The notes beneath the pieces are model-generated. The model had not been told where the DNA came from. It made no database searches and saw only the letters and a program-made list of their open reading frames with translations. The position numbers and the translations under genes are program-made. A stretch of DNA of 64,000 nt from a virus, in the IMG/VR virus record IMGVR_UViG_3300022890_000011, positions 64,001 through 128,000 of that record. The stretch is one strand, 5' to 3'. Of this stretch, positions 27,722 to 52,432 are shown one piece after another. Position 1 is the first letter of the stretch, and each line of letters begins with the position of its first letter.

Positions 27722-30700
27722 ATGGAAGTATATAACGTAAAATATTATAAGAGTGGAATTTATGAAGGTATATACACTTTAAAAATAGAAGAAGAAGTTG
27801 TGTCTGGTCTTTTAATAGGCAATCATCAAGTAACACCAAGTGAAATAAAACATAAATTTACATTAATTAAAGATGATAATTTAATAGATGAATATTTAGA
27901 TCAATGGGAATCAAACTACATTTTTAAAAATGACCGAAGTAATAGAGATATTAGATTTGAGAATCAATTTTTAGAAGTTGAATTGACAAGACCTATTTTA
28001 AAATCTATTTGTGAAGATGTTGATAACGGTGTTTATGAATATGAATATCAACAAGATTATTACTCAATGAATTTTGATGTTGATAAATATCAAAAGTATC
28101 TTATTAGAAAAGAAAGAAAAAATAAATTAGATAGAATACGTGAATCCGATAAATAATTTTATTATGAGTCTTAATATTAAAGAAAAATATAATGATATTT
28201 ATAAGTTGATTTTAGAATATGATTTGAATATTTTATTAAAACCAAATAATTCAAATATTGAATTTGTTATTGAATATGATGGTTATCAAATAGAGATAAA
28301 ACAAGGTATAACTGAAAAAGAATTTCAAAAGAAAATTATAAAGTTTCTTAGAAAGATTAAAATGAAGAGGTTGAAAAGTGAATAGAGAGTTTTTAAATGA
28401 TAATAAACAATTAATCAGAGAATATTTGTGTGATTTATGTACTTGTGATGTTGATGTTATTGAATTTTTTTTATATCCTGAAGATGGTAGGTGGAGAGTT
28501 ATGTATATGAATATTGAACTTGATTATTTTAATTATGATAGGATAAAATTAAATGAAAATGATGTTATTAAATATATTAGGAAACGTAAAATAGAGAGGG
28601 TAAAAGACAATGATAACAAATGAACAATATCTTAGTACAAAGTATGGTAAGAAATTAATCGAAATTATTGAAGATGATGATGACTGTTGTGTTTATGTGT
28701 TAGATATAAATGGTATTATCATTGTTCAGAAGTTGGTTTTGTCAGATGAGGATAAAAAAGAGTATTTAAGAATTAGTAGAAAACTAAAATTAGAGAGGGT
28801 AAAAGATGTTTGATTGGAATATAGTTGATGATATGTTAGATCGGTTAGATTTACACATGAGTATTATAAATTTTAATGGTAATGATAATATAGTTTTTCA
28901 GTATAAGGTTGAAAAAATAAGTACTAAAAATATACGGAAATTTAATTCTGATCATGATTTATTAAAATATCTTCAAAGATTAGAACGAAAACTTAAATTA
29001 GATAGAGTTAATGATAAATAGAGAATATTATTTTGATGAATTATGGCCTGAAAAACCTTTGCCATCACCACAAGGAAAAATAATATATCTTGATTATGTA
29101 TATCCTAATTTTAATATAATAGAAATAGAGAAAAACATAATAGAAAGGTTAAATGGAAAACTGGATTGAAGTAAGTGATAGATTAGATACAAAGACGAAA
29201 TATATTTAGTATTGGAGTATGTAGGTAATTCTAGAATAGATGATTTGCCAATTTATAGAATTGGATATAGTAATATTTTGTGTAATACAAATGAATTAAA
29301 TAAATATATTAGATATAATTATGTCAAATCCATTTCTGAGGCTCATACTAACATTACTAGTATTGAGCAAAATGTGATACGTAGATTCACTTTAAATAAT
29401 ATGATTATTAAGATTTATAAATATAATAAAGATGTACTAAATGAAAATTAAGGAAATAACAAAAGAATTGATGACTGAAGCATTTCAAGAAATTCTTAAA
29501 AAATATGATTTAAATGATATTGTAAATGGCGATTTTAAAGAAATGGGATTTGTAATGGATTATCCAGTTAAACTTAATGAAGAAGTTGAAGAGGATGATT
29601 TATATACTATTATAGAGGAAGAAATTATTGAAAAGTTCAAAGATAGATCTGGAATGAAAGAAAAGATTAAAGAAATTAAACGTAAAGAAAGGAAAGATAA
29701 AATTGAGAGACTTAGAAACGAGTAATTTATTAGATATTTATAATTATTGTAAGAGTTATTTGGATGACACATTTTCAGTTTTACAATTAATTAAATCATA
29801 TTGTGTTATTCAAAATAAAGAGTTATTTTTAACAATGAATATTGATGATAATGCATTTGAAAATTTAAGTGAAAAAGTACGATATATTTGTGAGAAGGTT
29901 ATTTCTAAAATTTATCCATCTTTTGATTTAAATCTTATAACTATAAATATAACAAAATCTGATTTTGATTCGATAAATGTTGATTTTGAGTTTAATAAAC
30001 CGGTTCTTAAAGATGCATTATGTAAAGAATTTACATCTAAGGAGTTTATTAGATTAGATAGAAAACGTAAACTTAAAAGAGTTAAATATGGAAGATAATT
30101 TAATATTTGTAGAAGGATATGTTATTAAATATTTACATGATAATATTAATATATTAAGTAATGAGTTAAAAGTACAATTAAATTATTTAGATTCTCAGAA
30201 TTTGAAATATTTTTTTGAGATTATAATTAGTGGTGGTGCTTATTCTTTGCAAGTTAATGAAATGGATTGTAACTTAGAATTTATACCAGATAAAGAATTT
30301 TTAAGATATGTTAGAAAAGAAAAACTAAAAAGAATTAAAGATGCTAGATAAAGATATTATATTATTAATGATTCAATATACTGATAAACAAATTGATGAA
30401 AAATTTAATGAATGTGAAATTGATTTACCAACTGAATCTTTAGAATATAATTATGAAGTTGATTTAGTTAAATCTAAAATAGAGAGATTAAATAGATTAC
30501 AAGAGTCAATTGTAGAAGCTAAAGAAGTATTAAATTATAGATTAACTGAAAATAAATTGACAAATGAATCTATAATTAATTGTTTAGTAGAATGTGAAAG
30601 AATAGACGGTTCTGTTTATTGTAATTATCATTCATTTGATTTTGATGAAAAGAGGTATAATAGAATTATGAGAAAATTAAAATTGAAAAGAGTTAGAGGA

Positions 30701-31153
30701 ATATGAATCAGAAAATAGTTAATAAATTAAATAAAGCTGCTCATAAATTACATCAAAGGTCAATGTACGGTGCAGCTAATCATATTATAGTTAGCGAAGA
30801 ATATATGGAAGTTGTTCAATTGATGTTTGATATTCAAACAATAGAACAAAATATAATAGAAAGATTAAATGATAAGTGGAACAGTGATTAAAAAGTATAA
30901 AGAATTAGGTATTAGGTCTATTATGATTAATGGTAATGATACAATGTTTGTTTATATTGATGATTGGTATTTATTTAAAGATTGGTGTGATTTTCCATTC
31001 ATGGTTATTTCTACTGAAAAAAATTGGAATATGAATTCAATAACCAACAATCCTTGGAGTATTCAAATAGAAGATCCTGAAACTAAATTAAAACTTTTTG
31101 ATAGAAAACTCAGGAAGTTAAAAATAAAAAGAATTAAAAATGAAGAAATTTAA
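27722..31153 (+). CDS. Array of about 13 small unrelated ORFs, 10 ending in an RKxKLxR[VI]-type tail
   Basis: e.g. RKNKLDRI, RKRKIERV, RKLKLERV, RKLKLDRV, RKRKLKRV, RKEKLKRI; overlapping stops and starts. Confidence 0.7.
29011..29169 (+). CDS. 52-aa ORF (not in track) with a major-capsid-like motif
   Basis: PLPSPQGKIIYLDYVY followed by IEKNIIERLN. Confidence 0.5.
   Translation: MINREYYFDELWPEKPLPSPQGKIIYLDYVYPNFNIIEIEKNIIERLNGKLD
30703..30891 (+). CDS. 62-aa ORF with a major-capsid-like motif
   Basis: KLNKAAHKLHQRSMYGAANHIIVSEE followed by IEQNIIERLN. Confidence 0.5.
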   Translation: MNQKIVNKLNKAAHKLHQRSMYGAANHIIVSEEYMEVVQLMFDIQTIEQNIIERLNDKWNSD

Positions 31154-31316
31154 AGTAACAAAAGGCAACGGAGAACCAGTAATCATGGAAGAAACTGAAA
31201 TTTATCCTATGATAGAACAAAGATCATCAGCATTTGCTGGTATGTTAAAAGGATTAAAGGTTGGAGAAGGAGTATATTCTAATGATACAATGACAAATTT
31301 CGAAAGAGTGGAATAA
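31140..31316 (+). CDS. 58-aa hypothetical ORF (not in track)
   Basis: MKKFKVTKGNGEP...FERVE*; fills the gap, coupled at both ends. Confidence 0.5.
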   Translation: MKKFKVTKGNGEPVIMEETEIYPMIEQRSSAFAGMLKGLKVGEGVYSNDTMTNFERVE

Positions 31317-31723
31317 TGAAACAGAATATTGAAATAGGAAATGGTCGAAGTTATCATGTTGACACATTTGACATGGTGGCTGATCCTTCTTTTAAAAATT
31401 CTACTTTAGGAGAAATTGAACATCCTGTACTATCATATACAGAACATTTAGCAAATTGTATTGAAACTAATATTTCATATAATGAGTATATCGTAGAACG
31501 AACGAAAATTAATATACCATATAAAGATAAACAAATATGGAAACCGTTGATTGAAGATTATGTTGATAAACCGTGTTCTTCTTTTTGTCAAGAAAAATTT
31601 TTCAAACAACCAATTAATTTCATTAAAAGTTTTTTTGTTAAAGAAAAAGTTGATTTTTCAATTAAAGATATTAGAAATAATGTTGAAAGAAATAGAAAAG
31701 AAATAAAAAACTTAGAATTATAA
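31316..31723 (+). CDS. Hypothetical protein with prohead-protease-like motifs
   Basis: TFDMVADPSF and LGEIEHP, then SYTEHLA...ISYNEYI. Confidence 0.45.
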   Translation: MKQNIEIGNGRSYHVDTFDMVADPSFKNSTLGEIEHPVLSYTEHLANCIETNISYNEYIVERTKINIPYKDKQIWKPLIEDYVDKPCSSFCQEKFFKQPINFIKSFFVKEKVDFSIKDIRNNVERNRKEIKNLEL

Positions 31724-32118
31724 TGGATAAGAATATTGAAGATTTACAAAAGAAATTAGAACAGTTCGGTATGTTATCTGAACCTAAAATAGAACACAAA
31801 GAAGAAAATATTCCACTTGAAAAAAAGTATATTTTTGCTGATGATAAAAATGCAATAATAGTTTCTTCTTCTAAGAAAGAATTTTTTAGAATTACCAATG
31901 AAGGTGAATTTATAGTTAATGGTGAAAAAATTGATGTAGATAAAGAATTTATACAATCTTTCACAATTGTATTAGAAGAGTTATTAGGAGAATCTCATGG
32001 TGAAATGATGAAAAGAGTTCGCAGAGAAGCAAGACAGGATGTTATTAAAGATTTAGAAAGATTATATGAGGATATAGATGAAATATTAATTAAAGAATTA
32101 ATTGAAAAATGGAAATAG
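31723..32118 (+). CDS. Hypothetical protein
   Basis: EFFRITNEGEFIVNGEKI. Confidence 0.5.
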   Translation: MDKNIEDLQKKLEQFGMLSEPKIEHKEENIPLEKKYIFADDKNAIIVSSSKKEFFRITNEGEFIVNGEKIDVDKEFIQSFTIVLEELLGESHGEMMKRVRREARQDVIKDLERLYEDIDEILIKELIEKWK

Positions 32119-32188
32119 AAAAATTTTTTATATTTTAAAATTTTTGTATTTTGAAGAAAATAGATTTTTAATTTAAAATTATAGAAAA

Positions 32189-32680
32189 ATGTCAACATTA
32201 TTATTATGGTGTACAATTATTGCATCAGCTTCAATATTATCAATTATTATAGGATTTATTATAGATGATGAAAATTTTATTTCTTTTGGTATAGCTTTTG
32301 CTTTTATTATTGGTATTCTTGGATTTGCTATTTTGGCAAATTGTCTTACAAATAAGATGGTAACTACTGAAATATTTCCAAAAGTTGTCATAGAAAAAAA
32401 TGTTAATGTTATCACAGTTATTTGGAGTCATGATGAAATTCAACATGAAACTAAATATTTTGATGAAATTAATAAAATAAATGAACATACAAAATGGACA
32501 ATGATTGAGAAATTCAATCATTATGGTTCTTTTAATGGATCTTATATTAAGTATGAAACACCTATAGAATATATTTATGCAGATACATCAAATGTCGAAA
32601 TAATACAATTTCAAAAAAGCCCACCAGATAGTATTAAAAAAGAGATTAAGTTGAATAAGCCTAATATTATGATAAAATGA
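32189..32680 (+). CDS. Membrane protein with two N-terminal TM helices
   Basis: Two hydrophobic segments; same architecture as 33658, 36822 and 37349. Confidence 0.6.
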   Translation: MSTLLLWCTIIASASILSIIIGFIIDDENFISFGIAFAFIIGILGFAILANCLTNKMVTTEIFPKVVIEKNVNVITVIWSHDEIQHETKYFDEINKINEHTKWTMIEKFNHYGSFNGSYIKYETPIEYIYADTSNVEIIQFQKSPPDSIKKEIKLNKPNIMIK

Positions 32681-32879
32681 TAAATCTTAATAAACCAGAA
32701 TATATTCAACATAAAGAATATATTATAAAAGTATCGGATATTTCTGCATTGAGATTTATATTATCTAGTGGAAAGAAAGAAGAATGGAGTGTTAGTAGTA
32801 ATGAATATGAAATATGTAAAAAGAAATTAATAAATTTATTAGAACCAGTTGATTTGGGTGATCTTTAAAACAAATATAA

Positions 32880-33270
32880 ATGAATATATCTGTATCAAAT
32901 AAAAAAGAAGGTTGGTTTATTAATCTATATATTAATGTACCTTATGATAGGATTTCAATAATGGTTTCTGATATAACTGAATTATATTTTCAAGGTGCAA
33001 AGATTAATACATATCCTGATTATTTTAAAAATGAATTTGATTTTGTTAAGAAAGTAAGAAAGTTTAGAGATAGACTTAAATATATTAAAACTGAGAATTG
33101 GGGTATGACCGAAGAATATTATTTTAAAGATGGTGAATTACATAGGTTATGGGGACCTGCGATTGAATATAAATAGAGGTGAAATTAAAACGAAAGAAGA
33201 ATATAGTAAAATGCCTGAAGTACAAAGATTTACAAGAAAATTAAAATTAGAAAGAGTAAGGAGAAAATAA
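32880..33270 (+). pseudogene. Frameshifted gene with LHRxxGPA motif and RK tail
   Basis: LHRLWGPAIEY then a shift near 33170 to ...FTRKLKLERVRRK*. Confidence 0.55.
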
Positions 33271-33572
33271 TGGATGGATATTATCTAGAAGTAAAAAATA
33301 AAGATGAATCAATAGCTTTTCAAGATGTTTGTCGTGAATTAGGTTATGATTGGTTTTTAACAACAAATAAAAATGTAGAAGATAATTATTATATTGTTCC
33401 AAATTATCCTTGTGTAATGTTTATGCAATCTAAGAATATGTCATTAAGGTGGTGTAGTGTGGAATTTTGGAATAGTTCGAGTTTAAAGCCTTATTATACA
33501 TCTACACAAGAATGTAAAGAATATATGAGAAAATTAAGAAAATTAAAACTTTGGAGGGTAAAAGAATGTTAG
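33270..33572 (+). CDS. Hypothetical protein with RK tail
   Basis: Ends LRKLKLWRVKEC*. Confidence 0.55.
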   Translation: MDGYYLEVKNKDESIAFQDVCRELGYDWFLTTNKNVEDNYYIVPNYPCVMFMQSKNMSLRWCSVEFWNSSSLKPYYTSTQECKEYMRKLRKLKLWRVKEC

Positions 33573-33657
33573 TAATGAATATTATAGCTATAGTAATAGT
33601 ATGTTATTTAGTTAGTGATTATGAAATAAAAGATTTATTAAATTTAAAAGGGAAAAA

Positions 33658-34095
33658 ATGACGTTAGGAATATTAATTTGTAGTGGTTTAACATTACTTG
33701 GGATTATAATATTAATTATAGGAATTGTAAAAGGTTATAAAGGTGAAGGTAAACAAATAGTAGGAACTGTGATATTAGTATTAACTGGTTTTATAGGATG
33801 GGGTGTTTGTAATATTGAATGTGTATCTAAAAAAAATATTGAAAAAATTGATGTTGAAGTTGTCATGACTAGTAAATCAGCAATAGTTGAATATATGTAT
33901 GATGATAGACTTAGACAAAAAGTTTACGAAAATGTTGCAGAATATACTATGATTAGAGATTATGAACTTGAATGGACTATAACAACTAAATATAATCAAT
34001 ATAGTTATGAATCATTTGGAAGTCTCGATTATAGTGTTATTGAAAAGAAAGAAAAAAAGGAAGAAAATAAAGTTAAATCTAATAATTTACAATGA
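33658..34095 (+). CDS. Membrane protein with two N-terminal TM helices
   Basis: Two hydrophobic segments then a soluble domain. Confidence 0.6.
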   Translation: MTLGILICSGLTLLGIIILIIGIVKGYKGEGKQIVGTVILVLTGFIGWGVCNIECVSKKNIEKIDVEVVMTSKSAIVEYMYDDRLRQKVYENVAEYTMIRDYELEWTITTKYNQYSYESFGSLDYSVIEKKEKKEENKVKSNNLQ

Positions 34096-34797
34096 ATAAT
34101 TCTACAAATTTTTTAGCTAACATTTCACCTAATGAAGATGAATCGAAAATAAGATTATTTGAGTTATTTAAAGAATCTTGTGATTCAAATTCTAAATTAA
34201 TTGATATTGTTAACAATGGTAATTTTAGAGATGAAAATAATGTTTGGAAAATTGGTTTAGATAAGTTACCAAAAATACGAGAATATCGTGGATATAAATG
34301 GAATAGAAAAGATGACGTTAAATATACTTATTCTTCTATGAAGAGGTTTAGATTTGCTGATAATGAAACATTAGATATAATTGCCTGTTATTATAATTAT
34401 GCTGAACAATATATTATAAAAGAGAAATATAGGAAATTACAATTCTTTGGTCTTTGGCACATTGATTCTGTTAGAAGTGTAAATATATTTGATAAATTAA
34501 AACCAGTTGTAGAAGATTTGATGCCAATTATGAAATCTGAATATTCTAAATACAATTATGAAATCTGAATATTCTAAATACAATTGGGAAACTGAATATC
34601 AGAAATATGGAACAGATGCATATCAAGAAATATATTTTGGTTGTAAAAAATATTATTTAGAATATGATAAATTATATTGTGAAATTAGTAAAGGAGAATT
34701 AGATTGTCTTAATGAATATTATGAAAATGGTATTAAAGATATATTATTTGAAAAATTAGAAAGAAGATTATATAAATTAAAGAATGAACAGGATTAA
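34092..34797 (+). pseudogene. Single gene split in two by a 28-bp tandem duplication
   Basis: caattatgaaatctgaatattctaaata occurs twice (34525-34580); removing one copy fuses 34092..34568 with 34558..34797. Confidence 0.7.
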
Positions 34798-35077
34798 AAG
34801 TTTTTTACGATATAATTTTTCGAATAAAAAGAAAGTACGAAAATACCTTGGAGGTTATTGGGAATATTGGACTGTTAATGAATTTGGTGAATTGTGGTTA
34901 AAAGTTTCAGAGAAAAATGCTTTTAAAAAAGATTATAAACCTCCTCTTGATAGAGAAACACCATATTGTGAATATTATGATATAGGTTTTTTTGGTAATA
35001 AGAGGGAATTAACTGATAAAATGTTAAAAAGATTAGACAGAAAAAGAAAATTAAAAAGAGTAAAAAATGAAAATTAG
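34784..35077 (+). CDS. Hypothetical protein with RK tail
   Basis: Ends DRKRKLKRVKNEN*. Confidence 0.55.
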   Translation: MNRIKSFLRYNFSNKKKVRKYLGGYWEYWTVNEFGELWLKVSEKNAFKKDYKPPLDRETPYCEYYDIGFFGNKRELTDKMLKRLDRKRKLKRVKNEN

Positions 35078-35393
35078 AAGTGGTTTTGTAAGTAATTCTT
35101 CAAGTAGTTCTTTTATAATTGAAAGAAAGAATCTTACTAAGAAACAAATAAGTAAGATTAAAAATCATATTGATGAACATAATAAAATGGATCCTTTGGA
35201 TCAATATAATCATTGTGATGGATGGTCTATTTATGAAAATTTACCAGAAGGTTATAGTGAATATGATGATAAAGTAAAAAGAAAATATCGTCAAGGACAT
35301 ATTGAAGGGTATTGTAACATGGATAATTTTAGTATGTATAGTTTTCTGGAAGAAATAGGTGTGCTTGATAATGATATTAATTGGACATATTAA
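35067..35393 (+). CDS. MKIRxGFVSNSSSSS-leader protein 1
   Basis: MKIRSGFVSNSSSSSFII; MDNF motif shared with 40301..40753. Confidence 0.75.
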   Translation: MKIRSGFVSNSSSSSFIIERKNLTKKQISKIKNHIDEHNKMDPLDQYNHCDGWSIYENLPEGYSEYDDKVKRKYRQGHIEGYCNMDNFSMYSFLEEIGVLDNDINWTY

Positions 35394-35437
35394 TTAAACA
35401 ATTAAGAATAAAAATCATAAAAAAAGAAAAATTAAAT

Positions 35438-35743
35438 ATGAAAATTAGAAATGGATTTGTAAGTAATTCTTCAAGTAGCTCATTTGTCATAATTGGATTT
35501 ATTCCTACAAAAGATGAATATGAAAAGTATGAGGAACAATTAGAAGATTTTGATCACACTTGTGAATCTTTTGACAATGGTGATGCGTATGGATTTTTTA
35601 TTGCAGTAGATGATGGAGAAGGTGACCAAGTAGAGAGTGAGATTGATTTTGATCAAATCACAAAATGGAGAGATGAACTTATTGAAAAGTTTGAAATTGA
35701 TGAAGAAAGAATTAAGTTATATTCAGGTATAATGATGTCTTAA
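35438..35743 (+). CDS. MKIRxGFVSNSSSSS-leader protein 2 (start 35438 rather than 35381)
   Basis: MKIRNGFVSNSSSSSFVI; acidic body. Confidence 0.75.
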   Translation: MKIRNGFVSNSSSSSFVIIGFIPTKDEYEKYEEQLEDFDHTCESFDNGDAYGFFIAVDDGEGDQVESEIDFDQITKWRDELIEKFEIDEERIKLYSGIMMS

Positions 35744-35799
35744 ATGAGATAAATTATGATTAAAAAAGAAGATTTAGAATTAAAAAATAAATAAAAAAT

Positions 35800-36306
35800 A
35801 TGAAAATTAGAAATGGATTTGTAAGTAATAGTAGTTCCAGTTCATATATATGTGATGTGTGTGGACATGATGAATCAGGTTGGGATTTGTGTTTATCAGA
35901 TGCAGAAATGGTAGAATGTGCATCAGGACATGTAATGTGTTGTTCGCATGTTGAAGCAACAAAAGCCGAAATATATATTGCTATGGTTGAAGAAGGAATA
36001 GAAAAATATGGTAATACATATGATCATGAAGATAAATTGAAAGAAATTCAAGTTATTGAAGATGAAAAAGAAAGAGAAAATTTTTGTAATGATGCTTTAT
36101 ATGAAACAGATTGGGAATATTCTTTTCCTTCAAAATTGTGTCCTATTTGTTCATTAAAGCAAATAAATGATAGTGAATTAGTACAATATTTAAAACATGG
36201 TGTAGGAATTGACATGGATTCTGTTATGAAAGATATGCGAAGTAAGTTTAAGGATTATGATGAATTTCAAACATTTTTAATAGAAAGGAGGAAAAATGAA
36301 AATTAG
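35800..36306 (+). CDS. MKIRxGFVSNSSSSS-leader protein 3, Cys-rich Zn-binding body
   Basis: Leader then CDVC...CASGHVMC...CPIC. Confidence 0.75.
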   Translation: MKIRNGFVSNSSSSSYICDVCGHDESGWDLCLSDAEMVECASGHVMCCSHVEATKAEIYIAMVEEGIEKYGNTYDHEDKLKEIQVIEDEKERENFCNDALYETDWEYSFPSKLCPICSLKQINDSELVQYLKHGVGIDMDSVMKDMRSKFKDYDEFQTFLIERRKNEN

Positions 36307-36829
36307 ATTAGGATTTGTAAGTAACAGTAGCTCAAGTAGTTATATTTGTGATATTTGTGGTGAAGATGCAACAGGTTATGATATTTCTTTAGAAGAATAT
36401 GAGATGTATGTTTGTAAGAATGGTCATGTTTTTTGTGAAGAACATATGAAAGTTATTCCAACAAATATTGAATTATTAAAAGTTATTTTTGAAGGTGAAG
36501 TGAAAAAGTATAAAAAATGGCTTGAAGATAATCCTGGTGAAGATTATGAAAAATGGTTAAAAGAGGCTGAAGATAATATTAATGAATTGAATACTCTTTC
36601 AGAATCTGAAATTGAAAAAAAAGTAGATGATGAATGGTATGATTATATTAGTGAATCAAGGTATGAATATCCTCCTAAATATTGCCCGTTGTGTAGATTT
36701 GATTATTTATCAAAAAAAGATGTTTATGAATATGTTGATAAGAAATATTCAATAGAGAAAGTTAAAAAAGAAATCAATGAAAAATTTGATAATTATGAAC
36801 AATTTAAAAACCATTTAAAAAATGATTAA
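36296..36829 (+). CDS. MKIRxGFVSNSSSSS-leader protein 4, Cys-rich Zn-binding body
   Basis: Leader then CDIC...CKNGHVFC...CPLC. Confidence 0.75.
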   Translation: MKIRLGFVSNSSSSSYICDICGEDATGYDISLEEYEMYVCKNGHVFCEEHMKVIPTNIELLKVIFEGEVKKYKKWLEDNPGEDYEKWLKEAEDNINELNTLSESEIEKKVDDEWYDYISESRYEYPPKYCPLCRFDYLSKKDVYEYVDKKYSIEKVKKEINEKFDNYEQFKNHLKND

Positions 36830-37768
36830 TACACTAATACTTGGAGGATTTGCCATAATATTGACTTATTGTGGAATTATGCTGTTTATAAATGCAAAGA
36901 AACGAAATGATGAGTGGGCTGCATTTCATGGTATTTTGTCATTAGTTGTCATAATATTTTTTCTTGTCTTTGGAAATGTTAAAATATACGAACATGAAAT
37001 AGATATAAGCGATAAATGTATTATGTTTGATATTAATAATGGTGTTTGTGTTGAATATCAAGGTGTGTATTATACAGATAAAAGTGTTTCTGCTAGAAAA
37101 TATAAATACGATTCACCAACTGTCATATTACATGATACATATACATTATTTTCAGATTCTAAGGATCAAGAAAATTATATAAAAATAAAACCTAATAAAA
37201 AGAAAAAGAAAGTAAATGAAAAGAAAGTAACAGATAAAGTTACTGATAAATGGCCATCGGATACTATCGGGGACTTTAATAAGGAACAAAAAGTAAATTC
37301 TGAAAATCAGAATTTTAAGAAAAATATAACAACTTTAAATTAAAAAACATGTTTTTAGGATTTTCAATAATAATAATATTATTCTTTGCAATTTTATTTA
37401 TTTTTTCTATAAAGAAAAATTATGAAGGAAATGTAGTTTATTCTAGTATATTTGGTGTGATTTCAATAATTTTTTTAACATGTGCATTATTTGTATTACC
37501 AGTTAAACAAGAACTAATAATATTAGATGAAAGTGAATATTTATATGAAACTTTTATTGAAAATGGAAAATTAAATGTAGAAATCGAGTGGAAAAATAAA
37601 AGTTTTTTCACTAAATCAGGGGTTGGTTATTTAGAAGGTGATTGTGAAGTAATTTTAATTCGAGAAATATCATCATTCGGCACCACCATTAATATATATG
37701 ATGATTACATTTTATACATAGTTCCAAAAGAGAAATTAGAAAAAGTTAACGATAAATATAAAAAATAA
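36822..37768 (+). CDS. Two membrane proteins with N-terminal TM hairpins (36822..37343, 37349..37768)
   Basis: Paired hydrophobic segments. Confidence 0.55.
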
Positions 37769-38787
37769 TGAGTCATTTTACAGTCCTAGTAATAGGAGAT
37801 AACCCAGAAGAACAACTAGCACCATTTCAAGAAAACAATATGGATGATTGTCCAAAAGAATATTTAGAATTCTATGAAACAGAATTAGGATATCAAGAGG
37901 AATGGGATTTAAACGAACTCAAGATCAGAAAACATTATCCAAATAAAAAAATTGATATCACGGAAGATCAACTTGAGCAATTGTGTGTAAAAGGCACAAT
38001 TAATATGGAGAAAGAATTTGAATCATGGAACAAAGTTAATGAAAATGATATTTGTGAACTTAATTGTAATCAAATAGTGAGTTTTGGTGTTGTTAAAGGT
38101 ATTTTATTTGATGAAGAAAGCAAACTTCAAAATTTTGTAATTATTCAAATGGAAAATAAAGAGAAAACTATTCAAGAACAGTATGGTACTTTTGAAAATT
38201 TTGTTTCTGAATACCATGGATTGTCTGAAAGAGATTCAGAATATAATAGATATGGTTATTGGGAAAATACTAGAGCTAAATGGGATTGGTATGAATTAGG
38301 TGGTAGATGGAGTGGTTTTTTTAGATTAAAAAATGGTTCGCATGGAAGTTTAGGTAGACCAGGTGTATTTGATAATATTCCTGAACATGGTACAGTGGAT
38401 CAAGCTTATAAGAAGGATATTAATTTTGATTTAATGAGAACAGAAAATTTTGAAAGAGCTTCAGAAAAGTGGGAAAAATGGGAAGAATTGAATAATTCTA
38501 ATACAGAAGACGCAAAAAATAAAGCTTATTGGTCATTTGGTATTATTAATATTGGAGATAAAGATAATTTTATACCAGAAGATAAAATAAGTTATTTGAA
38601 AAGACAAAGTAATATAAACACATTTGCAATTTTAAAAGATGGTGAATGGTATGAAAAAGGTGAAATGGGTTGGTTTGGTATGTATAATGATGAAATGAGT
38701 GAAGATGAATGGGGAGAAAAATTTGATGAACTTTTAGTTAATTTAACAGGTGACACATTACTTAGCGTATATGATTGTCATATTTAA
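37768..38787 (+). CDS. Conserved phage hypothetical protein (Trp-rich)
   Basis: MSHFTVLVIG...AKWDWYELGGRW...GEWYEKGEMGWFG...YDCHI*, a pattern recalled from uncharacterised large-phage proteins. Confidence 0.6.
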   Translation: MSHFTVLVIGDNPEEQLAPFQENNMDDCPKEYLEFYETELGYQEEWDLNELKIRKHYPNKKIDITEDQLEQLCVKGTINMEKEFESWNKVNENDICELNCNQIVSFGVVKGILFDEESKLQNFVIIQMENKEKTIQEQYGTFENFVSEYHGLSERDSEYNRYGYWENTRAKWDWYELGGRWSGFFRLKNGSHGSLGRPGVFDNIPEHGTVDQAYKKDINFDLMRTENFERASEKWEKWEELNNSNTEDAKNKAYWSFGIINIGDKDNFIPEDKISYLKRQSNINTFAILKDGEWYEKGEMGWFGMYNDEMSEDEWGEKFDELLVNLTGDTLLSVYDCHI

Positions 38788-38852
38788 AAATATAAAAATA
38801 TGAGAGAAAAAGATTATAAACAAGTATCATTTCAAAATAAGTTAAAATTATA

Positions 38853-39113
38853 ATGGAGATTTATAAATCATTTTGTATAGATAAAATAAGTAGAACTTTG
38901 GTTGGTTATAATAAAATTTGTATAGTTCATTTTATGATAGATTCTGTTTTAATAGGTTATTATAAAGGTTGTCATACTTATCCATTTAATGTTGATCAAG
39001 GTGCATATGTTATGGAAAAAATGTCATTTCTTGATTTAATACTTAGATTTGAAATTGATGCTAAAGATTATGTACCTGAATTAATTGAAGGCAATAAAAT
39101 GGATTTATTATGA
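38853..39113 (+). CDS. Hypothetical protein with KLGL-type tail
   Basis: Ends EGNKMDLL*. Confidence 0.5.
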   Translation: MEIYKSFCIDKISRTLVGYNKICIVHFMIDSVLIGYYKGCHTYPFNVDQGAYVMEKMSFLDLILRFEIDAKDYVPELIEGNKMDLL

Positions 39114-39562
39114 AAAGATTATTTATTATAAGACACGGAAAAGCAGAAGATCACGATCAATCAGATTTTGAAAGATCTTTAACAAAAAAAGGCAAAAGGG
39201 TTAGTAGAGAAGTGGCTAAATCGTTATATAATGATGGATACCAAATTGATAATTTTATTACGAGTCCTGGTTTTAGATCATTAGAAACTTGTATAATATT
39301 TGCAGATGAATTTGGTTATAATGTTGAAGATATAATAATTAATAGTGATTTATATTTTAATGTTACAACTAATGAATATCAAAATATTTTTGACCAATGT
39401 CCGGGTTCTGATAATATTGCTATAGTTGGACATAATCCGTTTTTATCATTTTTAGTTCATCATCTAACTGGTAAAATTGTTAATATGATTAAAAGTGGAG
39501 TGTCAGTTATAGAATTTAATGATGGTATGACAGAAGCTAAATTAATTTTATATAAAAACTAA
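39110..39562 (+). CDS. sixA: SixA-like phosphohistidine phosphatase
   Basis: IIRHGKA, DFERSLT..G, SP..RS.ET, IVGHNP. Confidence 0.88.
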   Translation: MKRLFIIRHGKAEDHDQSDFERSLTKKGKRVSREVAKSLYNDGYQIDNFITSPGFRSLETCIIFADEFGYNVEDIIINSDLYFNVTTNEYQNIFDQCPGSDNIAIVGHNPFLSFLVHHLTGKIVNMIKSGVSVIEFNDGMTEAKLILYKN

Positions 39563-39634
39563 TGAAAATAACAAAACAAGAAGGTGGAGATATAGAATAT
39601 CAAATTGAAGAAGATATAATCGAATTAATTAAAG

Positions 39635-39985
39635 ATGAAAATTAGAAAAGGATTTGTGAGTAACAGCTCATCAAGTAGTTATATTTGTGATATTTGTGGT
39701 GATGCTTTTGAAATGTGGGATGAGTCTCCTACTTCATGTGAATATGGTCATTATTTTTGTTATGATTGTATTCCAGATAACTGTGAAGGTGAAGGAAGTG
39801 TTGAAGAAAAGGATTGTCCTTATTGTTCATTTGAGAAAATTTCAGAATATGATTTTAATAATTATATTTTAGCTAAATATAATTTAAATAAAGGAGATAT
39901 TGAAAATGAAATTTATGAGAGATTTGAGAACTTTTCAGAATTTATAATTTATATTAACGAAAATAAGAATAGAAAATGCGATTAG
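39635..39985 (+). CDS. MKIRxGFVSNSSSSS-leader protein 5, Cys-rich
   Basis: Leader then CDIC...CEYGHYFCYDC...CPYC. Confidence 0.75.
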   Translation: MKIRKGFVSNSSSSSYICDICGDAFEMWDESPTSCEYGHYFCYDCIPDNCEGEGSVEEKDCPYCSFEKISEYDFNNYILAKYNLNKGDIENEIYERFENFSEFIIYINENKNRKCD

Positions 39986-40311
39986 AAAATTTAGAAACAA
40001 GAGTAATTGGTTATATTGGTGTAGATGCAGGTATTGTGTGGATTGGAGACCCATGTTATATAATGCATAAAGATAAACCTTATAAATCTATTGGTAAAGA
40101 TTGGGGTGATTTTTGTGATAAACTTGGTGATAGTTATGTTAAATCATTTAATTATGACATGGGGCACGAGGGTTTAGGTGTTTGTACATCTACTAAACAC
40201 GGTGATGGTCATTATCCAGTTATCGGGTTTTTTGAACCAGGTGCACAAAGACCATCATGTGTAATGGTTGATTTTGATAACATTTTTAATAACGAAGAAG
40301 ATGAAGATTAG
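39976..40311 (+). CDS. DUF4241-like hypothetical protein
   Basis: GVDAGIVWIGDPCY...GDGHYPV. Confidence 0.5.
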   Translation: MRLENLETRVIGYIGVDAGIVWIGDPCYIMHKDKPYKSIGKDWGDFCDKLGDSYVKSFNYDMGHEGLGVCTSTKHGDGHYPVIGFFEPGAQRPSCVMVDFDNIFNNEEDED

Positions 40312-40753
40312 AAGTGGTTTTGTAAGTAATAGTAGTTCATCATCTTTCTTAATTTTAAAAGAAGGATTAAGTGATGAACAAATTAGTTCTGTGATAGAAC
40401 ATAAGAAACATGCTGATAATTATTTTAATAGTAATGATAGATTAACTGATGAATATCATGAGAATGAAGAAGATGGTTATTCACCTTTTCATCAATTGTA
40501 TGGATTTTGGGATATAGATGGTTATGATGTGTGGAATATAGAAGATCATTTAAATTATATATTAACTGAAAATGGTATGGATAATTTTGATTTGATGAGT
40601 TTTTGTATTGATATATTTAATATACCAAAAGATAATATTTATACGGTTGAAAGTGATATGTATTATTATATTAATGATGTAGATAGTTTTGTAAAACAGA
40701 CAATTACAGAAAGTCGTAAAAATAAACTCGAAAGAGTAAAAAATAAAAAATAA
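40301..40753 (+). CDS. MKIRxGFVSNSSSSS-leader protein 6, also carrying an RK tail
   Basis: MKIRSGFVSNSSSSSFLI ... SRKNKLERVKNKK*. Confidence 0.75.
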   Translation: MKIRSGFVSNSSSSSFLILKEGLSDEQISSVIEHKKHADNYFNSNDRLTDEYHENEEDGYSPFHQLYGFWDIDGYDVWNIEDHLNYILTENGMDNFDLMSFCIDIFNIPKDNIYTVESDMYYYINDVDSFVKQTITESRKNKLERVKNKK

Positions 40754-40756
40754 AGA

Positions 40757-41242
40757 ATGGGAACGAGAAGTTCAATTGCAATTAAAACAGAAGATGGTAC
40801 ATATAAAGGAATATATTGTCATTGGGATGGTTATTTAGACCATAATGGTATTATACTATATGAATCTTATGACACTTATGAAAAAGTACTTGAATTAGTA
40901 AATTTAGGTGATGCTTCATCTTTAGATCATAGTTCTAAATTAGTTGAAGGACATACATATGATACAAAAAAAGAAGGATGTTCCACATTCTATCATCGAG
41001 ATAGAGGTGAAAAATGGGAGGATGTTGCTCCAAAAGAGTTCGATACATATAAAGAATTGTTAGATTATTTAGGTCAAGGATATGATTATATTTTTGAAGA
41101 TGGTGAATGGTATGATAATGGAAAAGGTAAATTAGAGGATTTACTTATTAATACTGAACATGCTTCAAGAGTAAAGGAATTAAAGAAAAAGAGAATACAA
41201 ACAGATAGAAAACTTAAAATAGAGAGAATAAATGAAGATTAG
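40757..41242 (+). CDS. Conserved phage hypothetical protein with RK tail
   Basis: MGTRSSI...IYCHWDGY...FYHRDRGE; ends DRKLKIERINED*. Confidence 0.6.
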   Translation: MGTRSSIAIKTEDGTYKGIYCHWDGYLDHNGIILYESYDTYEKVLELVNLGDASSLDHSSKLVEGHTYDTKKEGCSTFYHRDRGEKWEDVAPKEFDTYKELLDYLGQGYDYIFEDGEWYDNGKGKLEDLLINTEHASRVKELKKKRIQTDRKLKIERINED

Positions 41243-41792
41243 AAGTGGTTTTGTAAGCAATAGTAGTTCATCATCTTTCATATTAAGAAAAGATGATTAT
41301 TTTCCTGATTCATATAGCTTAGCGGCTAGCATGATAAAAGTTAGAGAATGGAATAATGATGGTGAACTAGTTGATAAATTAATTAGTAAAGTGGAGGCTG
41401 GTGAAAGTTATCCTAATATTAGTTTTGCATCTTGTAATTATGATACGTTTATAGTTGATGAAGGAGATTATTTATTATGTGAAACTTGTAATAATCATGC
41501 ACATTGGAATATAACTGATTATGGTGATAATATTAGTTTTGCATCTTTACCAGAAGAAATAAGATTAAAATATAGTAGAGATGGTGATATGAATCTTACT
41601 GGAAAATATAGTGAAGAAGAAAAAGATTGTGATGAATTTTGGTTTGTAGAACATGATATAATTGGTAAATTAGCTTCTAAATATACTAATGGAAAATATA
41701 ATAATGATACATATTGTTCTGAATGTTATACTGATTATGTTGTAATTGATGGTGTTGCACAATGTCCAAGATGTAGAAAAGTAGATGAATAA
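41232..41792 (+). CDS. MKIRxGFVSNSSSSS-leader protein 7
   Basis: Leader; SCNYDT, TCNNH, C-terminal CSEC...CPRC. Confidence 0.75.
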   Translation: MKIRSGFVSNSSSSSFILRKDDYFPDSYSLAASMIKVREWNNDGELVDKLISKVEAGESYPNISFASCNYDTFIVDEGDYLLCETCNNHAHWNITDYGDNISFASLPEEIRLKYSRDGDMNLTGKYSEEEKDCDEFWFVEHDIIGKLASKYTNGKYNNDTYCSECYTDYVVIDGVAQCPRCRKVDE

Positions 41793-42431
41793 GTATTTTA
41801 AAGATATATTAAATAATTCTCAGTTTACAATGATATCAGGAAAAACTAATAGTGGCAAAACTAGATTTTTAATGTGGTTAGCTGCTTTATGTTCAGAAAA
41901 TAACAAGGTCTTATACATTTCTACAGAAATGAGTGAAAGACATGTTATTAATAATTTTTCACCATTATTGAATGTTGATTTACATAAAAAATGGATTAGA
42001 ACTGCTAGAAAACTTAAAATGGATAGAATTAAAGGTAATATCGAATATAAAAATATACCAGGTATTGTTATTAAACATACTCAATATGTTGATGATATTA
42101 AAAAATTGGTTGGTGATTATGATGTTGTTGTTATTGATTCTATATTAATTTAATATTGGAAAAAGATAGAAGGTTATATTCATATAAAGAACAAAATGAT
42201 TTTATTAATATATTTACGGGAAAAGTTATTATATCATCTCAATTATATAGAAATGGAGATATTTTAACATCTAGTTTTCCAATGAAATTGTTTACGAATA
42301 GTGATTCTGTATTTTCTATTGAAAAAGAAGATAATTTTTTATTAAGTAAGATTGAATGTCACAAAAATAGATATTTACCTATTGGTTTAGTACCTAAAAA
42401 ATTTGATTTATCAAAAATGAATTTTGTTTAA
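41785..42431 (+). pseudogene. DnaB/RecA-fold ATPase domain split by a frameshift
   Basis: GKTNSGKT, LYISTEM, VVVIDS, then (other frame) SSQLYR, SDSVF, KNRY; removing one AT from TATAT at about 42141-45 gives DSINLI and joins the two ORFs. Confidence 0.7.
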
Positions 42432-42629
42432 AAATAAAATATTAGAGATGAGAGAATTTTTATTAGAATTAAAGAATAAATATCCAAATGATCAAGATTT
42501 TGGTGAAAAAATGAGAGAATTGTTATTAGATGAAGAATTATTATATTTTTTATCTGAAATTGAAGAAGATTTTATAATGAATGTTTGGTATGATGATAAA
42601 GTAAATGAATTAAAAAAGAAATATTTATA

Positions 42630-42812
42630 ATGAAATATTAAAAATTATTTGACGAAGAAGTATTAAAAAATATGATACTTTCAAATTTATATGAATCTTT
42701 TGATAGAGGTGGTATTGAATTAGAAGATTATGTTGATGATCTTGATTTAGAAGTACGTGTTTATATATCAATGATTGAACCATGGAAAACGACAATAAAA
42801 TTCGAAGATTAA
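42630..42812 (+). pseudogene. Capsid-targeting-like ORF with a nonsense codon at position 4
   Basis: ATG AAA TAT TAA AAA TTA TTT GAC GAA = MKY*KLFDE; frame then open to 42812. Confidence 0.45.
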
Positions 42813-42857
42813 AAACTTAAAATTTATTTAAGTATAAATAATAAATACAAGAAAAAT

Positions 42858-43607
42858 ATGAAAATTAGAAACGGATTTGTAAGTAATTCAAGTAGTAGTT
42901 CATTTGTTATAATGTCTACAAATAAAATAGAGTCAAATGATGATATATATGAAAAGTTTTTGATACCTGAAGCATCACCTTTAAGTAGTTTGTCATATGA
43001 TATATCTCGCACTTTTTTTAATCAAAGTGAAGAAATGTCATATGAAGATATAGTAGATGAATATTATTATGGTGATAAAGAACTTATTCTAGAAGATGTG
43101 TCTCTCTTACATGAAGAATGTAGTTGGTTGTTTAGTTTAGAAGAATTACAAAAAATAAAAGATGAAAAATTATTTGTAAGATATGGTTCTGTTTCTAGTG
43201 ATAGTGGAGAACCAATTGATCAGTTGATATATTATGGTGCAGATATTAATATAGATACAGAAGATTTTAAAATAAATAGAAAATTAATGGAACAATTTAC
43301 AATTATGTTTAATGGAAAAGAATTTAAAATTAAATCACGAGAACATGAATTAATATTCTTTTCTATGTGGAAAGCAATAAGCCAAATATTACCTGAATTT
43401 ATTGGAGAAGAATATTATGCTCAATGCAATAATTCATTTATAAATGTAAATAAAGCAATTAATAAACAAAAACATAATCATGAATTTTTTAACGCCTTCT
43501 TCATGAAAAAAAATATAATCAATGAAAATACTGTAATTTTTATTAAACCTGTAAAAGCGTGTTATGATTGGAAAAAGAAATATGACAAATATATATTTGT
43601 AATATAA
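42858..43607 (+). CDS. MKIRxGFVSNSSSSS-leader protein 8 fused to an inserted ORF (from ATG 43287)
   Basis: Leader; direct repeats at 43257 and 43655 bracket the second half. Confidence 0.7.
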   Translation: MKIRNGFVSNSSSSSFVIMSTNKIESNDDIYEKFLIPEASPLSSLSYDISRTFFNQSEEMSYEDIVDEYYYGDKELILEDVSLLHEECSWLFSLEELQKIKDEKLFVRYGSVSSDSGEPIDQLIYYGADINIDTEDFKINRKLMEQFTIMFNGKEFKIKSREHELIFFSMWKAISQILPEFIGEEYYAQCNNSFINVNKAINKQKHNHEFFNAFFMKKNIINENTVIFIKPVKACYDWKKKYDKYIFVI

Positions 43608-43688
43608 AAAAAATATTTCCTGAAATGTAGCACCAAAAGAAATAAGATTATTAGACAGAAGATTTTAAAATAAAAATAGAAAATTAAT

Positions 43689-44210
43689 ATGGAAGAAGAA
43701 ATATTAAACGTTATACAGAATTTACCACCAGATAAATTATTAGAATTATCTGAAATGGTAGTAAAAACATTAGAGACTAATATAAAATTTGAATCATTAG
43801 AATTGAGTGCTAGACATGAAAAATTAGTTGAAACTATTAAAACACATTTAAAGGAGATAAAAGATATTTATGAATCGTCTACTTTATTTGAAAAATATTC
43901 AAAAATATCTGATGATATTAGAACAAGAATCAGTGATTTGAATAGTGATACTTATCATAATATTGAAAACAGATCAGATCAAGTTGAAGATATTAAAGGT
44001 ACTTGTAGTGATATGTATGATATTAAAGAAGAAATAAAAGAGTTAATTTCAGAAATGGATGAACATGATATTGAAATTATAAATGAAATAATGTTAGATT
44101 TAACTGATTTGATGCATGATCTTGAGAGTTATATTGAGAGTGGTGATATAATTGTAAATCAACATGAAATTCTAGAATATAAAATTGAAGATTTTTTAAG
44201 AAATTTTTAA
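43689..44210 (+). CDS. Acidic coiled-coil hypothetical protein
   Basis: Helical heptad pattern. Confidence 0.5.
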   Translation: MEEEILNVIQNLPPDKLLELSEMVVKTLETNIKFESLELSARHEKLVETIKTHLKEIKDIYESSTLFEKYSKISDDIRTRISDLNSDTYHNIENRSDQVEDIKGTCSDMYDIKEEIKELISEMDEHDIEIINEIMLDLTDLMHDLESYIESGDIIVNQHEILEYKIEDFLRNF

Positions 44211-44228
44211 TTAAAATAAATAAATAAT

Positions 44229-46508: not shown

Positions 46509-46550
46509 GTTTGATGAAGAAATGAAACATAATCCTATTATATCATTTGA

Positions 46551-46790
46551 AGATTTGATCCGTCAAGCAAAACATGTTCTAATTGTGGTTCAATCAATAA
46601 AGAATTGACTTTAAAGGATAGGGAATGGATTTGCTCTAAATGTGGAAAAGAACATGATAGAGATATTAATGCTGCTATAAATATAAGAAATTTTGGGTTG
46701 AGGAACCAACCCAGTGTCACCCAAAGTGAATGGTTACATTGTGCTTGTGGCGTATAAACACATTAGTCTTTAGCTAATGTGTAAGTTCAT
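46551..46790 (+). mobile_element. tnpB: IS200/IS605 tnpB 3' remnant with right end
   Basis: Unannotated frame [13 protein letters not shown]...[22 protein letters not shown] ending 46757, then hairpin ACACATTAG-TCTTTAG-CTAATGTGT and AAGTTCAT. Confidence 0.88.
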
Positions 46791-46861
46791 AAGAGGTTAT
46801 TTAGTAGTGAAAGCATAAAACAATAAATACGATTGGGAAAAATTAATAAAAAATATTAATA

Positions 46862-47194
46862 ATGAAAGAAAAAGTAGAAAAATTATTAGGTTTAATAGGT
46901 AATGAAGATCTTTTCAAAAAATTGAGAGATGAATATTTAAAACATTTAAATGAACAGATAGATGATCCTGAGATATTTGAAGAATTTATGTGTCTTATAA
47001 TAAATGAATTTAAATATGAAACATTCAGAGATGAAACTAGTAAGAATTATATGGAAATTTATACAGAGGAAGAAATGGATTATATGTTGAATTATTATAG
47101 TAGTGATATAGGACAAAGTATAATTGAAAAGAATACTATTATGGTAACAAGAAGTATGACATTGAGCCAAAAGATTGTCGTTAATTTCTTCTAA
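46862..47194 (+). CDS. DUF2059-like protein, probably 3'-truncated
   Basis: YTEEEMDYMLNYYSSDIGQSIIEK. Confidence 0.5.
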   Translation: MKEKVEKLLGLIGNEDLFKKLRDEYLKHLNEQIDDPEIFEEFMCLIINEFKYETFRDETSKNYMEIYTEEEMDYMLNYYSSDIGQSIIEKNTIMVTRSMTLSQKIVVNFF

Positions 47195-47437
47195 TTTATC
47201 TAATATCTCTTGACTATTATTATCATTTATTCCACCTGGATTTAACATTTCAATTCTAGTTTCACCTTCTTTTATAGGTAAAAAAAATTGAATAATATCA
47301 TGATAATCTTTTTCTAAAGAATAATATTGTTTAAAATAATTAAGACCTTGTCTTGCTTGCTGTTTACTTAAACCATCGACATTTATATAAAATATAAATA
47401 TTATTTTATCTTTGATTGATTGTTTATTTAAATTCAT
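46946..47437 (-). CDS. Small protein with T4-portal-like motifs
   Basis: IFYINVDGLSKQQARQGL and FFLPIKEGETRIEMLNPG; the 3' part is antisense run-on into 46862..47194. Confidence 0.5.
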   Translation of the reverse strand: MNLNKQSIKDKIIFIFYINVDGLSKQQARQGLNYFKQYYSLEKDYHDIIQFFLPIKEGETRIEMLNPGGINDNNSQEILDKLEEINDNLLAQCHTSCYHNSILFNYTLSYITTIIIQHIIHFFLCINFHIILTSFISECFIFKFIYYKTHKFFKYLRIIYLFI

Positions 47438-47442
47438 TAATT

Positions 47443-51992: not shown

Positions 51993-51997
51993 ATAAT

Positions 51998-52423: not shown

Positions 52424-52432
52424 ATATTTATA

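Follow-up and report, generated by a model that had tools for sequence, protein, structure and literature searches.

Short megaphage genes resembling excerpts of T4-like capsid, prohead protease and portal proteins as candidate inert binding mimics

Satellites encode small interference proteins that act on the head assembly or terminase of another phage, as illustrated by P4 Sid, PICI CpmAB and Ppi, and PLE TcaP. Among the head proteins, the S77/gp21 prohead protease uses a Ser-His-Asp triad, ordered His, Ser, Asp along the full domain. The clip of the portal protein gp20 is the docking site for terminase and neck, and a peptide of gp20 288-311 binds gp17 and blocks packaging (PMC4493910), while free Gol peptide promotes cleavage of EF-Tu by Lit (PMC3014915). 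Defence triggers are reported among capsid, portal and terminase proteins and also prohead proteases, with the capsid A-domain bound by Avs7/8/10 (10.64898/2026.01.04.697583; 10.64898/2026.03.04.709575). Several Avs sensors, which read whole folds, are activated by truncated or catalytically dead targets. The anti-defence mimics and anti-Avs proteins of the EVADES survey are likewise small accessory phage proteins proposed to neutralise sensors through binding, and a word search of that survey found no capsid-derived decoy (10.1101/2025.06.06.658234).

In contrast to the satellite proteins, which are satellite-encoded and do not consist of excised motifs bearing a common tail, the mini-genes described here belong to an uncultured, autonomous megaphage, whose genome, at least 513 kb long and equipped with a terminase gene, does not fit a helper-dependent satellite. 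No description of such genes was found in the literature searched, mostly without subscription papers. A preliminary description of the window (the whole stretch of 64,000 nucleotides analysed) had picked out four ORFs as fragments of gp23-, gp21- and gp20-like proteins, and all four, with every motif quoted for them, lie where it placed them; ORF1b had not been flagged. The features are as follows:

27722..33270, plus strand: array of small, mostly overlapping ORFs that hosts ORF1, ORF1b, ORF2 and ORF3
29011..29169, plus strand: ORF1, 52 aa; residues 11-36 resemble gp23-like capsid (T4 gp23 ~111-136), then an IE[KQ]NII tail
29212..29451, plus strand: ORF1b, 79 aa; the N-terminal ~21 residues resemble a lineage-specific capsid segment (SRID motif), then a variant tail
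30703..30891, plus strand: ORF2, 62 aa; residues 2-39 resemble the gp23 helix-turn-strand-helix (T4 gp23 ~350-387), then the shared tail
31316..31723, plus strand: ORF3, 135 aa; prohead-protease patchwork, with the Asp motif at 17-26, the His motif at 31-37 and scaffold repeats at 40-61
46862..47194, plus strand: DUF2059 gene (profile E 3.7e-10), truncated by the inversion
46946..47179, minus strand: ORF4 read-through; its 77 codons run antisense to the DUF2059 gene and lie outside the clip family
47180..47437, minus strand: native part of ORF4, 86 codons; a free-standing portal clip domain without the 14-residue distal loop, its stop codon lost
47180..47487, no strand: inversion of ~308 bp with respect to relatives, moving the clip gene and the last 15 DUF2059 codons onto the minus strand

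What each ORF retains of gp23, gp21 or gp20 is a conserved surface or motif, with the rest of the fold or the catalytic residue missing. We ran profiles of ~80 megaphage-lineage capsids, proteases and portals against all 556 ORFs of the contig, with twenty genome-equivalents of shuffled or reversed ORFs as the null (maxima 10.2 bits on capsid and 12.9 bits on protease profiles). ORF1 (12.7 bits, E 1.2e-3), ORF2 (17.6 bits, E 4e-5) and ORF3 (27.3 bits, E 4e-8) all exceed this null and come out first or near the top of the contig's ORFs, while ORF4 alone stays inside it (7.5 bits against 11.9 on the portal profile) and is connected to the portal by its family. The gp23, gp21 and gp20 ancestry proposed earlier is supported, as is the view that the ORFs are too short for a structural role. 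With public profiles the matches are weak for ORF2 (Pfam Gp23, PF07068, E 0.1, 12.4 bits) and ORF3 (PHROG head maturation protease, E 0.13), with none for ORF1 or ORF4. Codon usage (LLR 0.20-0.31) makes ORF1-3 and the first 88 codons of ORF4 look coding.

The gp23 pieces, at 52-79 aa, fall short of full gp23, marked by an HK97-type fold of ~450-600 aa and a Pfam score >24.4 bits; homology to gp23 segments holds for ORF1 and ORF2. ORF1b lies at the edge of the null (9.9 bits, E 8e-3) and its TTG start codon is uncertain, and with a counterpart in LR745206 (E 5e-5) it is a borderline candidate for a third, weaker gp23 piece that could also be a chance resemblance. All three bear one shared helical tail, previously recognised in ORF1 and ORF2 and overlooked in ORF1b, and an R-K-x-K-L-x-R-V-type tail ends 11 ORFs of the array. 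The capsid part of ORF1, at the 99th percentile of capsid conservation, comprises the end of the Gol region and the next strand. Gol, a 29-residue region, spans gp23 94-122, and ORF1 (111-136) overlaps only its last residues. ORF1 resembles the Gol peptide, which acts outside the capsid, in being a conserved short gp23 stretch that overlaps the C-terminal end of Gol; however, Gol sits inside an intact gene and activates defence, while ORF1 lacks the 20-residue core, cannot be counted as Gol and reaches the next strand. ORF2 matches part of the A-domain, reaches 17.2 bits with capsids of a second lineage as against 8.3 with those of the megaphage lineage, and has counterparts in LR756501 and LR756502.

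ORF3 shares its His motif, Asp motif and scaffold repeat with the T4 gp21-type prohead protease (PF03420) and its megaphage protease-scaffold fusion. In contrast to these proteases, its motifs are adjacent and reversed, with Asp before His, there is neither a Ser nucleophile nor a barrel, and the C-terminal half is unrelated to prohead protease. ORF3 therefore falls outside S77/gp21 and, judged from these motifs, cannot work as a protease. In one assembly a nonsense variant removes its last 26 residues; further assemblies of this phage, at 99-100% identity, are too similar to yield a dN/dS.

ORF4 had been drawn as a single gene at 46946-47437, and this does not hold: only 47180-47437 is native, the remainder being antisense read-through (codon-usage LLR -0.37, marked as antisense junk) that differs in variant P0001. 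In the relatives L114 and L115 the DUF2059 gene precedes the clip gene on one strand, and BLASTN switches strand at 47174-47177. The inversion cost the clip gene its stop codon; its right end abuts a CTP synthase gene, and no inverted repeat was noticed by eye at its ends. An assembly artefact was rejected, since independent JGI, Logan and ENA assemblies have the same state. The family profile of ORF4 aligns with T4 gp20 283-371 (HHalign 95.8%, pairwise E 7.6e-9), establishing homology to the clip domain. The family comprises 103 clusters, with Portal_T4 as its commonest Pfam (6/79 members), and all relatives have 65-242 aa, unlike a full gp20 portal (PF07230), which unites wing, stem, clip and crown in a single chain of ~520 aa. 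Like the T4 gp20 clip (residues 279-358; PF07230; PDB 3JA7, 6UZC), the family has the same strand-helix-strand-strand order, covers the gp17-docking tip and is predicted to make head-to-tail self-contacts. It differs in being free-standing at ~90 aa with no wing, stem or crown, with the distal loop deleted and a variable docking helix, and the window copy is in addition inverted and without its stop.

The clip model (pLDDT 84) is strand-helix-strand-strand-helix, and fold searches with it returned generic matches (Z up to 5.5) and no portals, which was not counted against homology. A three-copy model of the family scores 0.46 against 0.05 for the best control, with head-to-tail contacts resembling a clip ring, runs that agree in at least 92% of contacts and pLDDT of at least 76; the mark it passes is reached by 20/30 solved pairs and 1/23 single chains, although three copies lie beyond this calibration and the pass may reflect memory of portal structures. 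The family carries a conserved signature of its own, but its docking helix is the least conserved part: columns there reach 17-48%, whereas four core residues reach 92-98%. The clip gene evolves faster (dN/dS 0.31-0.58) than its neighbours (0.09-0.19). The window copy is most likely a disabled allele, and an intact paralog elsewhere in this phage is coupled to a dead terminase ATPase.

In addition, this phage encodes a further two clip minis, a capsid collage and this dead terminase, an ATPase-only paralog in which Walker A Lys is changed to Ile and Walker B Glu to Asn, identically in this phage and in LR756500. It overlaps a clip mini by 8 nt here, the pair lying at G001 345586-345981 and 345974-346873, and adjoins the real terminase gene in LR756500, and it is absent from LR745206, LR756502 and 79 other loci of the IMG/VR scan. 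Non-contiguous parent motifs are stitched together in ORF3 and at G001 62113-62649 and 63736-64365. Every window piece has a counterpart in LR745206, LR756500, LR756501 or LR756502, counterparts of each one are present in three complete megaphages, and the same pieces occur in other genomes at E down to 1e-20. When 131 long protein families were compared with 2147 small ORFs of four genomes (E<1e-3), 41 matches were found against 2 in the shuffled set, and the parents were capsid (11), protease/scaffold (5), the ClpC UVR motif (4), terminase (2, one of them a split real gene) and portal (2). Head and packaging genes dominate among these parents, and other large late genes are not among them. 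No orthologs of ORF1-3 were found in IMG/VR scans or in the ESM Atlas (scores under 0.8), word-indexed protein searches gave truncated capsids only, and DNA patterns for the shared tail gave chance matches only. No Cas7 was found in two genome pieces of this phage.

Copies in complete genomes are far from their own parents (pooled pS 0.60; 172/363 identical residues use another codon), which rejects a DNA- or RNA-level decoy and recent duplication there and indicates that the minis are old protein-level copies, not recent DNA duplicates. Orthologous minis remain open between LR745206 and LR756502 despite near-saturated silent sites. Selection on such minis is purifying, but their pN/pS of 0.39-0.74 does not fall below that of the median small ORF (0.49), and dN/dS from mini-parent alignments is biased downward because these were picked for similarity. 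No head genes of this phage were found in G000, G003 or G001 for comparison with the pieces.

Our best explanation, to which we give about an even chance on the sequence evidence, is that the minis derive from head and packaging proteins as excerpts that were acquired long ago, are kept for a purpose and act by binding. They would be expressed from an accessory operon (a promoter scan did no better than shuffles), and each piece would occupy a partner of the true protein, blocking or diverting it. The favoured partner would be a host factor able to sense head or packaging proteins, with Lit- or CapRel-type motif sensors, Avs-type receptors and protease-sensing systems as candidates. The bias towards head and packaging parents, the counterparts in megaphages, the protein-level copying, the open orthologs, the stitched motifs, the shared dead terminase changes, the docking role of the clip, the reported defence triggers and the three-copy clip model argue for binding mimics; selection as on ordinary small ORFs, the fast-evolving clip gene with its variable docking helix, the broken ORF4 of this window and the nonsense variant of ORF3 argue against them. 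Capsid is also made in large excess over accessory proteins, a further point against. As truncated targets activate Avs sensors and Gol peptide promotes Lit, the pieces could trigger instead of shield. The decoy or dominant-negative function suggested earlier is plausible; a host sensor as the partner, making the pieces immune decoys, is a tentative and somewhat doubtful choice, and a viral partner of either kind is rather unlikely. Similarly, it may be, though we think it fairly unlikely, that megaphages maintain inert, tagged excerpts of their own triggers (capsid, portal clip, protease, terminase ATPase) as a library by which bacterial sensors are saturated.

The strongest alternative, which has a considerable if less than even chance of being correct, is that short stretches of highly expressed head genes were taken up long ago into tagged accessory ORFs as recycled parts. 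Selection would then act on the tail, on a helical scaffold, on some new role at the level of the fold, or hardly at all, and nothing but conserved blocks would still be recognisable. Selection equal to that on ordinary small ORFs fits this, as do the clip family's own signature and variable docking helix, the inversion of ORF4, the truncation of ORF3 in some assemblies, and one orthologous pair whose tail seems better preserved than its capsid piece. Most detected pieces come from capsid stretches ranking in the 84th-99th percentile for conservation, which is what detection bias would produce; however, two piece types come from average or variable regions (39th and 29th percentile). Recycling also leaves unexplained why no other large late genes are among the parents, why distant parent motifs were spliced together, why two distant terminase paralogs share identical dead substitutions, and why the LR756501 clip helix agrees with the portal of the same genome at 14/19 residues against 9 for other portals.

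Two versions of the mimic reading with viral partners have little probability each. As dominant-negative weapons against co-infecting T4-like phages, the pieces would cap proheads or occupy a rival's terminase, in line with the inhibition of packaging by the gp20 288-311 peptide and with four minis, ORF2 and three from other genomes, that score higher on a foreign capsid lineage than on the megaphage lineage; yet most minis resemble their own lineage, with a risk of self-poisoning, and with the phage's own capsid not recovered, ORF2 is only putatively foreign. It is similarly improbable that they regulate the phage's own assembly, for instance with a clip ring and dead ATPase holding terminase inactive until proheads are ready. 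The dead terminase beside the real one in LR756500 and coupled to a clip mini here, and clip helices like the own portal in LR756501 and weakly in LR745206, favour regulation, while the patchy spread of the dead terminase and the place of ORF1-3 in an accessory array that lacks the TATATA element present before many other genes oppose it. Chance resemblance of short AT-rich ORFs, suggested by public profiles that reach only E 0.1 and by ORF1b and ORF4 alone inside the null range, is very improbable overall and is rejected for ORF2, ORF3 and the ORF4 family, given ORF1-3 above all shuffled nulls, the HHalign result and the same pieces in other genomes.

If the minis are decoys, they would counter bacterial pattern recognition in a general way and provide a ready map of sensed epitopes, and a library of own triggers would list the epitopes that bacteria actually watch. 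If their partners are viral, they would represent naturally occurring inhibitors of DNA packaging and head assembly. On the dullest reading, too, they explain a group of megaphage genes that had lacked annotation and establish a portal-clip family that is large and has no name. They also caution that a weak match to gp23 or portal in a huge phage need not mean a structural gene.

The preliminary description had read four small ORFs of the window as excised motifs of T4-like head proteins: ORF1 (29011..29169, plus strand) and ORF2 (30703..30891, plus) from the gp23 capsid, ORF3 (31316..31723, plus) from the gp21-type prohead protease and ORF4 (46946..47437, minus) from the gp20 portal. All four ORFs and the quoted motifs are present; the bounds of ORF4 as drawn are wrong, and the gene is a damaged allele. 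Pfam and PHROG profiles match the flagged ORFs with E near 0.1 at best, and tblastn against 50,697 phage records finds, with weak E-values, complete gp23 genes for the queries ORF1 and ORF2 and, for ORF3, complete protease-scaffold genes of huge phages. Profiles built on about 80 lineage proteins and run on 556 ORFs, with 20 genome-equivalents of shuffled ORFs as the null, bear out the proposed capsid and protease origins (ORF1, 1.2e-3; ORF2, 4e-5; ORF3, 4e-8; all above the shuffled null). ORF1 aligns with T4 gp23 111-136 and ORF2 with 350-387, while the unflagged ORF1b (29212-29451) is a third, borderline capsid piece. ORF3 is a patchwork in which the Asp motif precedes the His motif, reversing the parent order, and scaffold repeats follow; no Ser motif of the prohead protease is found in it. 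Within the 166.6-kb contig that holds the window (G000), the tail IE[KQ]N[IV]I is present in exactly three ORFs, the capsid-piece ORFs 1, 1b and 2, and appears to be a less basic form of RKxKLxRV, the tail with which 11 of their neighbours terminate. For ORF2 the better match is a foreign capsid lineage (17.2 bits, versus 8.3 for the megaphage lineage), for ORF1 the reverse, which is only a hint with the phage's own capsid not recovered. A 93-aa mini-gene product outside the window (G000 8689-8970) carries prohead scaffold repeats and a basic tail (E 3e-7). In two minus-strand window proteins (12939-13709 and 13735-14232) a Gly-rich segment matches the insertion at the N-terminus of the lineage capsid (small profile, E 2e-4 and 0.2), and the megaphages LR745206, LR756502 and LR756500 have counterparts.

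The portal origin claimed for ORF4 is upheld by its family. A search with its first 88 residues returns 103 clusters of relatives (65-242 aa), with no full-length portal among them, and the family profile aligns at 95.8%, with a 14-residue deletion, to gp20 283-371; this is the gp20 clip domain (279-358), the docking site of terminase and neck (PMC4493910). The two nearest relatives have the clip gene directly after DUF2059, both genes on one strand, and there it stops about ten residues past ORF4 codon 86. Gene order and strand, compared with these relatives, define one feature of the window:

About 47180-47487: inverted segment

The inversion cut the final 15 codons from DUF2059; these codons now lie on the minus strand, upstream of ORF4. 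Past the inverted segment ORF4 continues for 77 codons antisense to DUF2059, with codon statistics of antisense type. The inverted state is identical in independent assemblies, and we infer that ORF4 is probably a disabled allele. Compared with its orthologs, its native part is under weaker purifying selection than its neighbours (dN/dS 0.31-0.58 versus 0.09-0.19, rough values with silent sites near saturation). The CTP synthase gene (47416-49077) starts where the inversion ends on the right, and antisense DUF2059 sequence forms the N-terminus predicted for it. If the inversion were reversed on paper, the clip gene would be joined to this gene in frame, so a simple flip probably does not describe the whole event, which would have been more complex. 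An IS200/IS605-type remnant lies at 46540-46790, a full copy terminates the contig, and assembly L021 has an adjoining deletion of ~250 bp that removes the DUF2059 start.

G000 is a phage contig of 25% GC with core genes about 30-50% identical to those of LR745206, and no capsid, portal or prohead protease gene was found in it. A 348-kb record (G001), retrieved by its IS-end pattern, shares a whole IS with G000 at 99.9%, its final 88 kb has a tetranucleotide correlation of 0.97 with G000, and gene content is complementary (LR745206 genes matched by G000 only, 19; G001 only, 74; both, 2). We infer a single phage with a genome of at least 513 kb; neither piece contains its head module. The real terminase of G001 is a split gene (48602-52477) with intact Walker motifs, and the record holds further pieces:

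62113-62649: capsid collage
63736-64365: clip domain fused to scaffold repeats
345586-345981: intact clip mini
345974-346873: terminase ATPase without nuclease, 299 aa, overlapping the intact clip mini by 8 nt

In this ATPase the Walker A Lys is Ile and the Walker B Glu is Asn. Both changes recur in a 270-aa paralog (35% identity; LR756500 193332-194144) that lies beside that genome's real terminase; no dead terminase ATPase was found at 79 other IMG/VR loci. The fusion and collage cluster (61923-64365, locus L405) with a clamp-loader-like gene and a 66-aa ORF of three short internal repeats and an IEKNII tail, which is coupled to the collage.

Elsewhere in the window, three large secreted-type proteins (2601-11330, minus) resemble by eye Bacteroidota gliding-motility-associated C-terminal-domain proteins and, with CTP synthase, hint at a Bacteroidota host. 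About 25 genes, at 1098-22901 and in other parts of G000, start with a leader resembling the T4 capsid-targeting one, and GLL-type tails terminate 28; G001 has 81 such tails. A serine-rich N-terminal KIRxGFVSNS leader is common to several unrelated proteins at 35067-43607. A 122-aa stand-alone DnaB/RecA-type ATPase piece lies at 41785-42153 (PHROG helicase E 6e-12); Avs20 is triggered by RecA-type cores. Assembly L022 (L022:1-3010) changes to different sequence at an LRR paralog upstream of 22200, a rearrangement or misassembly among LRR genes of 85-90% identity.

Conservation in related phages, proposed as a check, is found for every window piece, with counterparts in LR745206, LR756502, LR756500 or LR756501. 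In each of the first three, which are complete genomes, a single full-length capsid gene is accompanied by about 7 to 12 small ORFs that carry pieces of capsid, protease or portal, many of them terminating in that genome's common tail. In an unbiased census of 131 long protein families against 2147 small ORFs, head and packaging parents and the ClpC UVR motif rank at or near the top alongside ordinary paralog families (capsid, 11; protease/scaffold, 5; ClpC UVR motif, 4; terminase, 2, one being part of a split real gene; portal, 2), with 41 real matches versus 2 in shuffles. Most pieces come from conserved blocks of their parents, two types from average or variable blocks. Silent sites between mini and parent are near saturation, and the minis are therefore old protein-level copies. 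Orthologous minis of LR745206 and LR756502 show ordinary purifying selection (pN/pS 0.39-0.74, about equal to the small-ORF median of 0.49). In orthologous capsid collages (LR745206 291407-291880; LR756502 315773-316270), the common tail motif is inserted mid Gol-region loop.

These comparisons show, at the level of predicted proteins, head-protein origin and recurrence, and the predicted anatomy of the minis shows them to be inert; they would act by binding. We give binding mimicry, over all partners together, an even chance. The parents are proteins sensed by known defences, according to two reports (10.64898/2026.01.04.697583; 10.64898/2026.03.04.709575), and they also bind each other within the prohead, so the choice of partner cannot be made from sequence alone. 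Host sensors are the favoured target, at odds well short of even; rival phages are an improbable one, and own assembly equally so. Against decoys, several Avs sensors are activated by truncated or dead targets (10.64898/2026.01.04.697583), Lit is switched on by free Gol (PMC3014915), and the docking helix is the clip family's most variable part, a variability tempered by LR756501, where it matches the phage's own portal at 14/19 positions. Peptide gp20 288-311 binds gp17 and blocks packaging (PMC4493910), and ORF4 spans this region. A three-copy clip-family model scored 0.46 versus 0.05 for the best control (runs sharing at least 92% of their contacts; pLDDT 76 or higher), passing a mark reached by 20/30 solved pairs and 1/23 single chains, a calibration that three copies lie outside. 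Strand 60-64 of one copy is predicted to contact strands of its neighbour, an arrangement also present in the portal clip; passing the mark may reflect solved portals already known to the predictor. That the minis are instead recycled parts is a substantial prospect, somewhat short of even. Other explanations are highly improbable, and chance resemblance is barely credible.

As whole proteins the ORFs are not members of gp23, gp21, gp20 or Gol, but as excerpts they are homologous to these. Their action may resemble that of known mimic-type anti-defence proteins or of satellite interference proteins, classes to which no test run assigns them. A literature search, with most subscription papers outside its reach, found no published description of such mini-genes, which are apparently undescribed; judged by their predicted products, they are real and lineage-wide. 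Tagged minis also carry the ClpC UVR coiled-coil motif (LR745206 296085-296384, LR756502 320919-321134, LR756500 52386-52610), and the design therefore extends beyond virion proteins.
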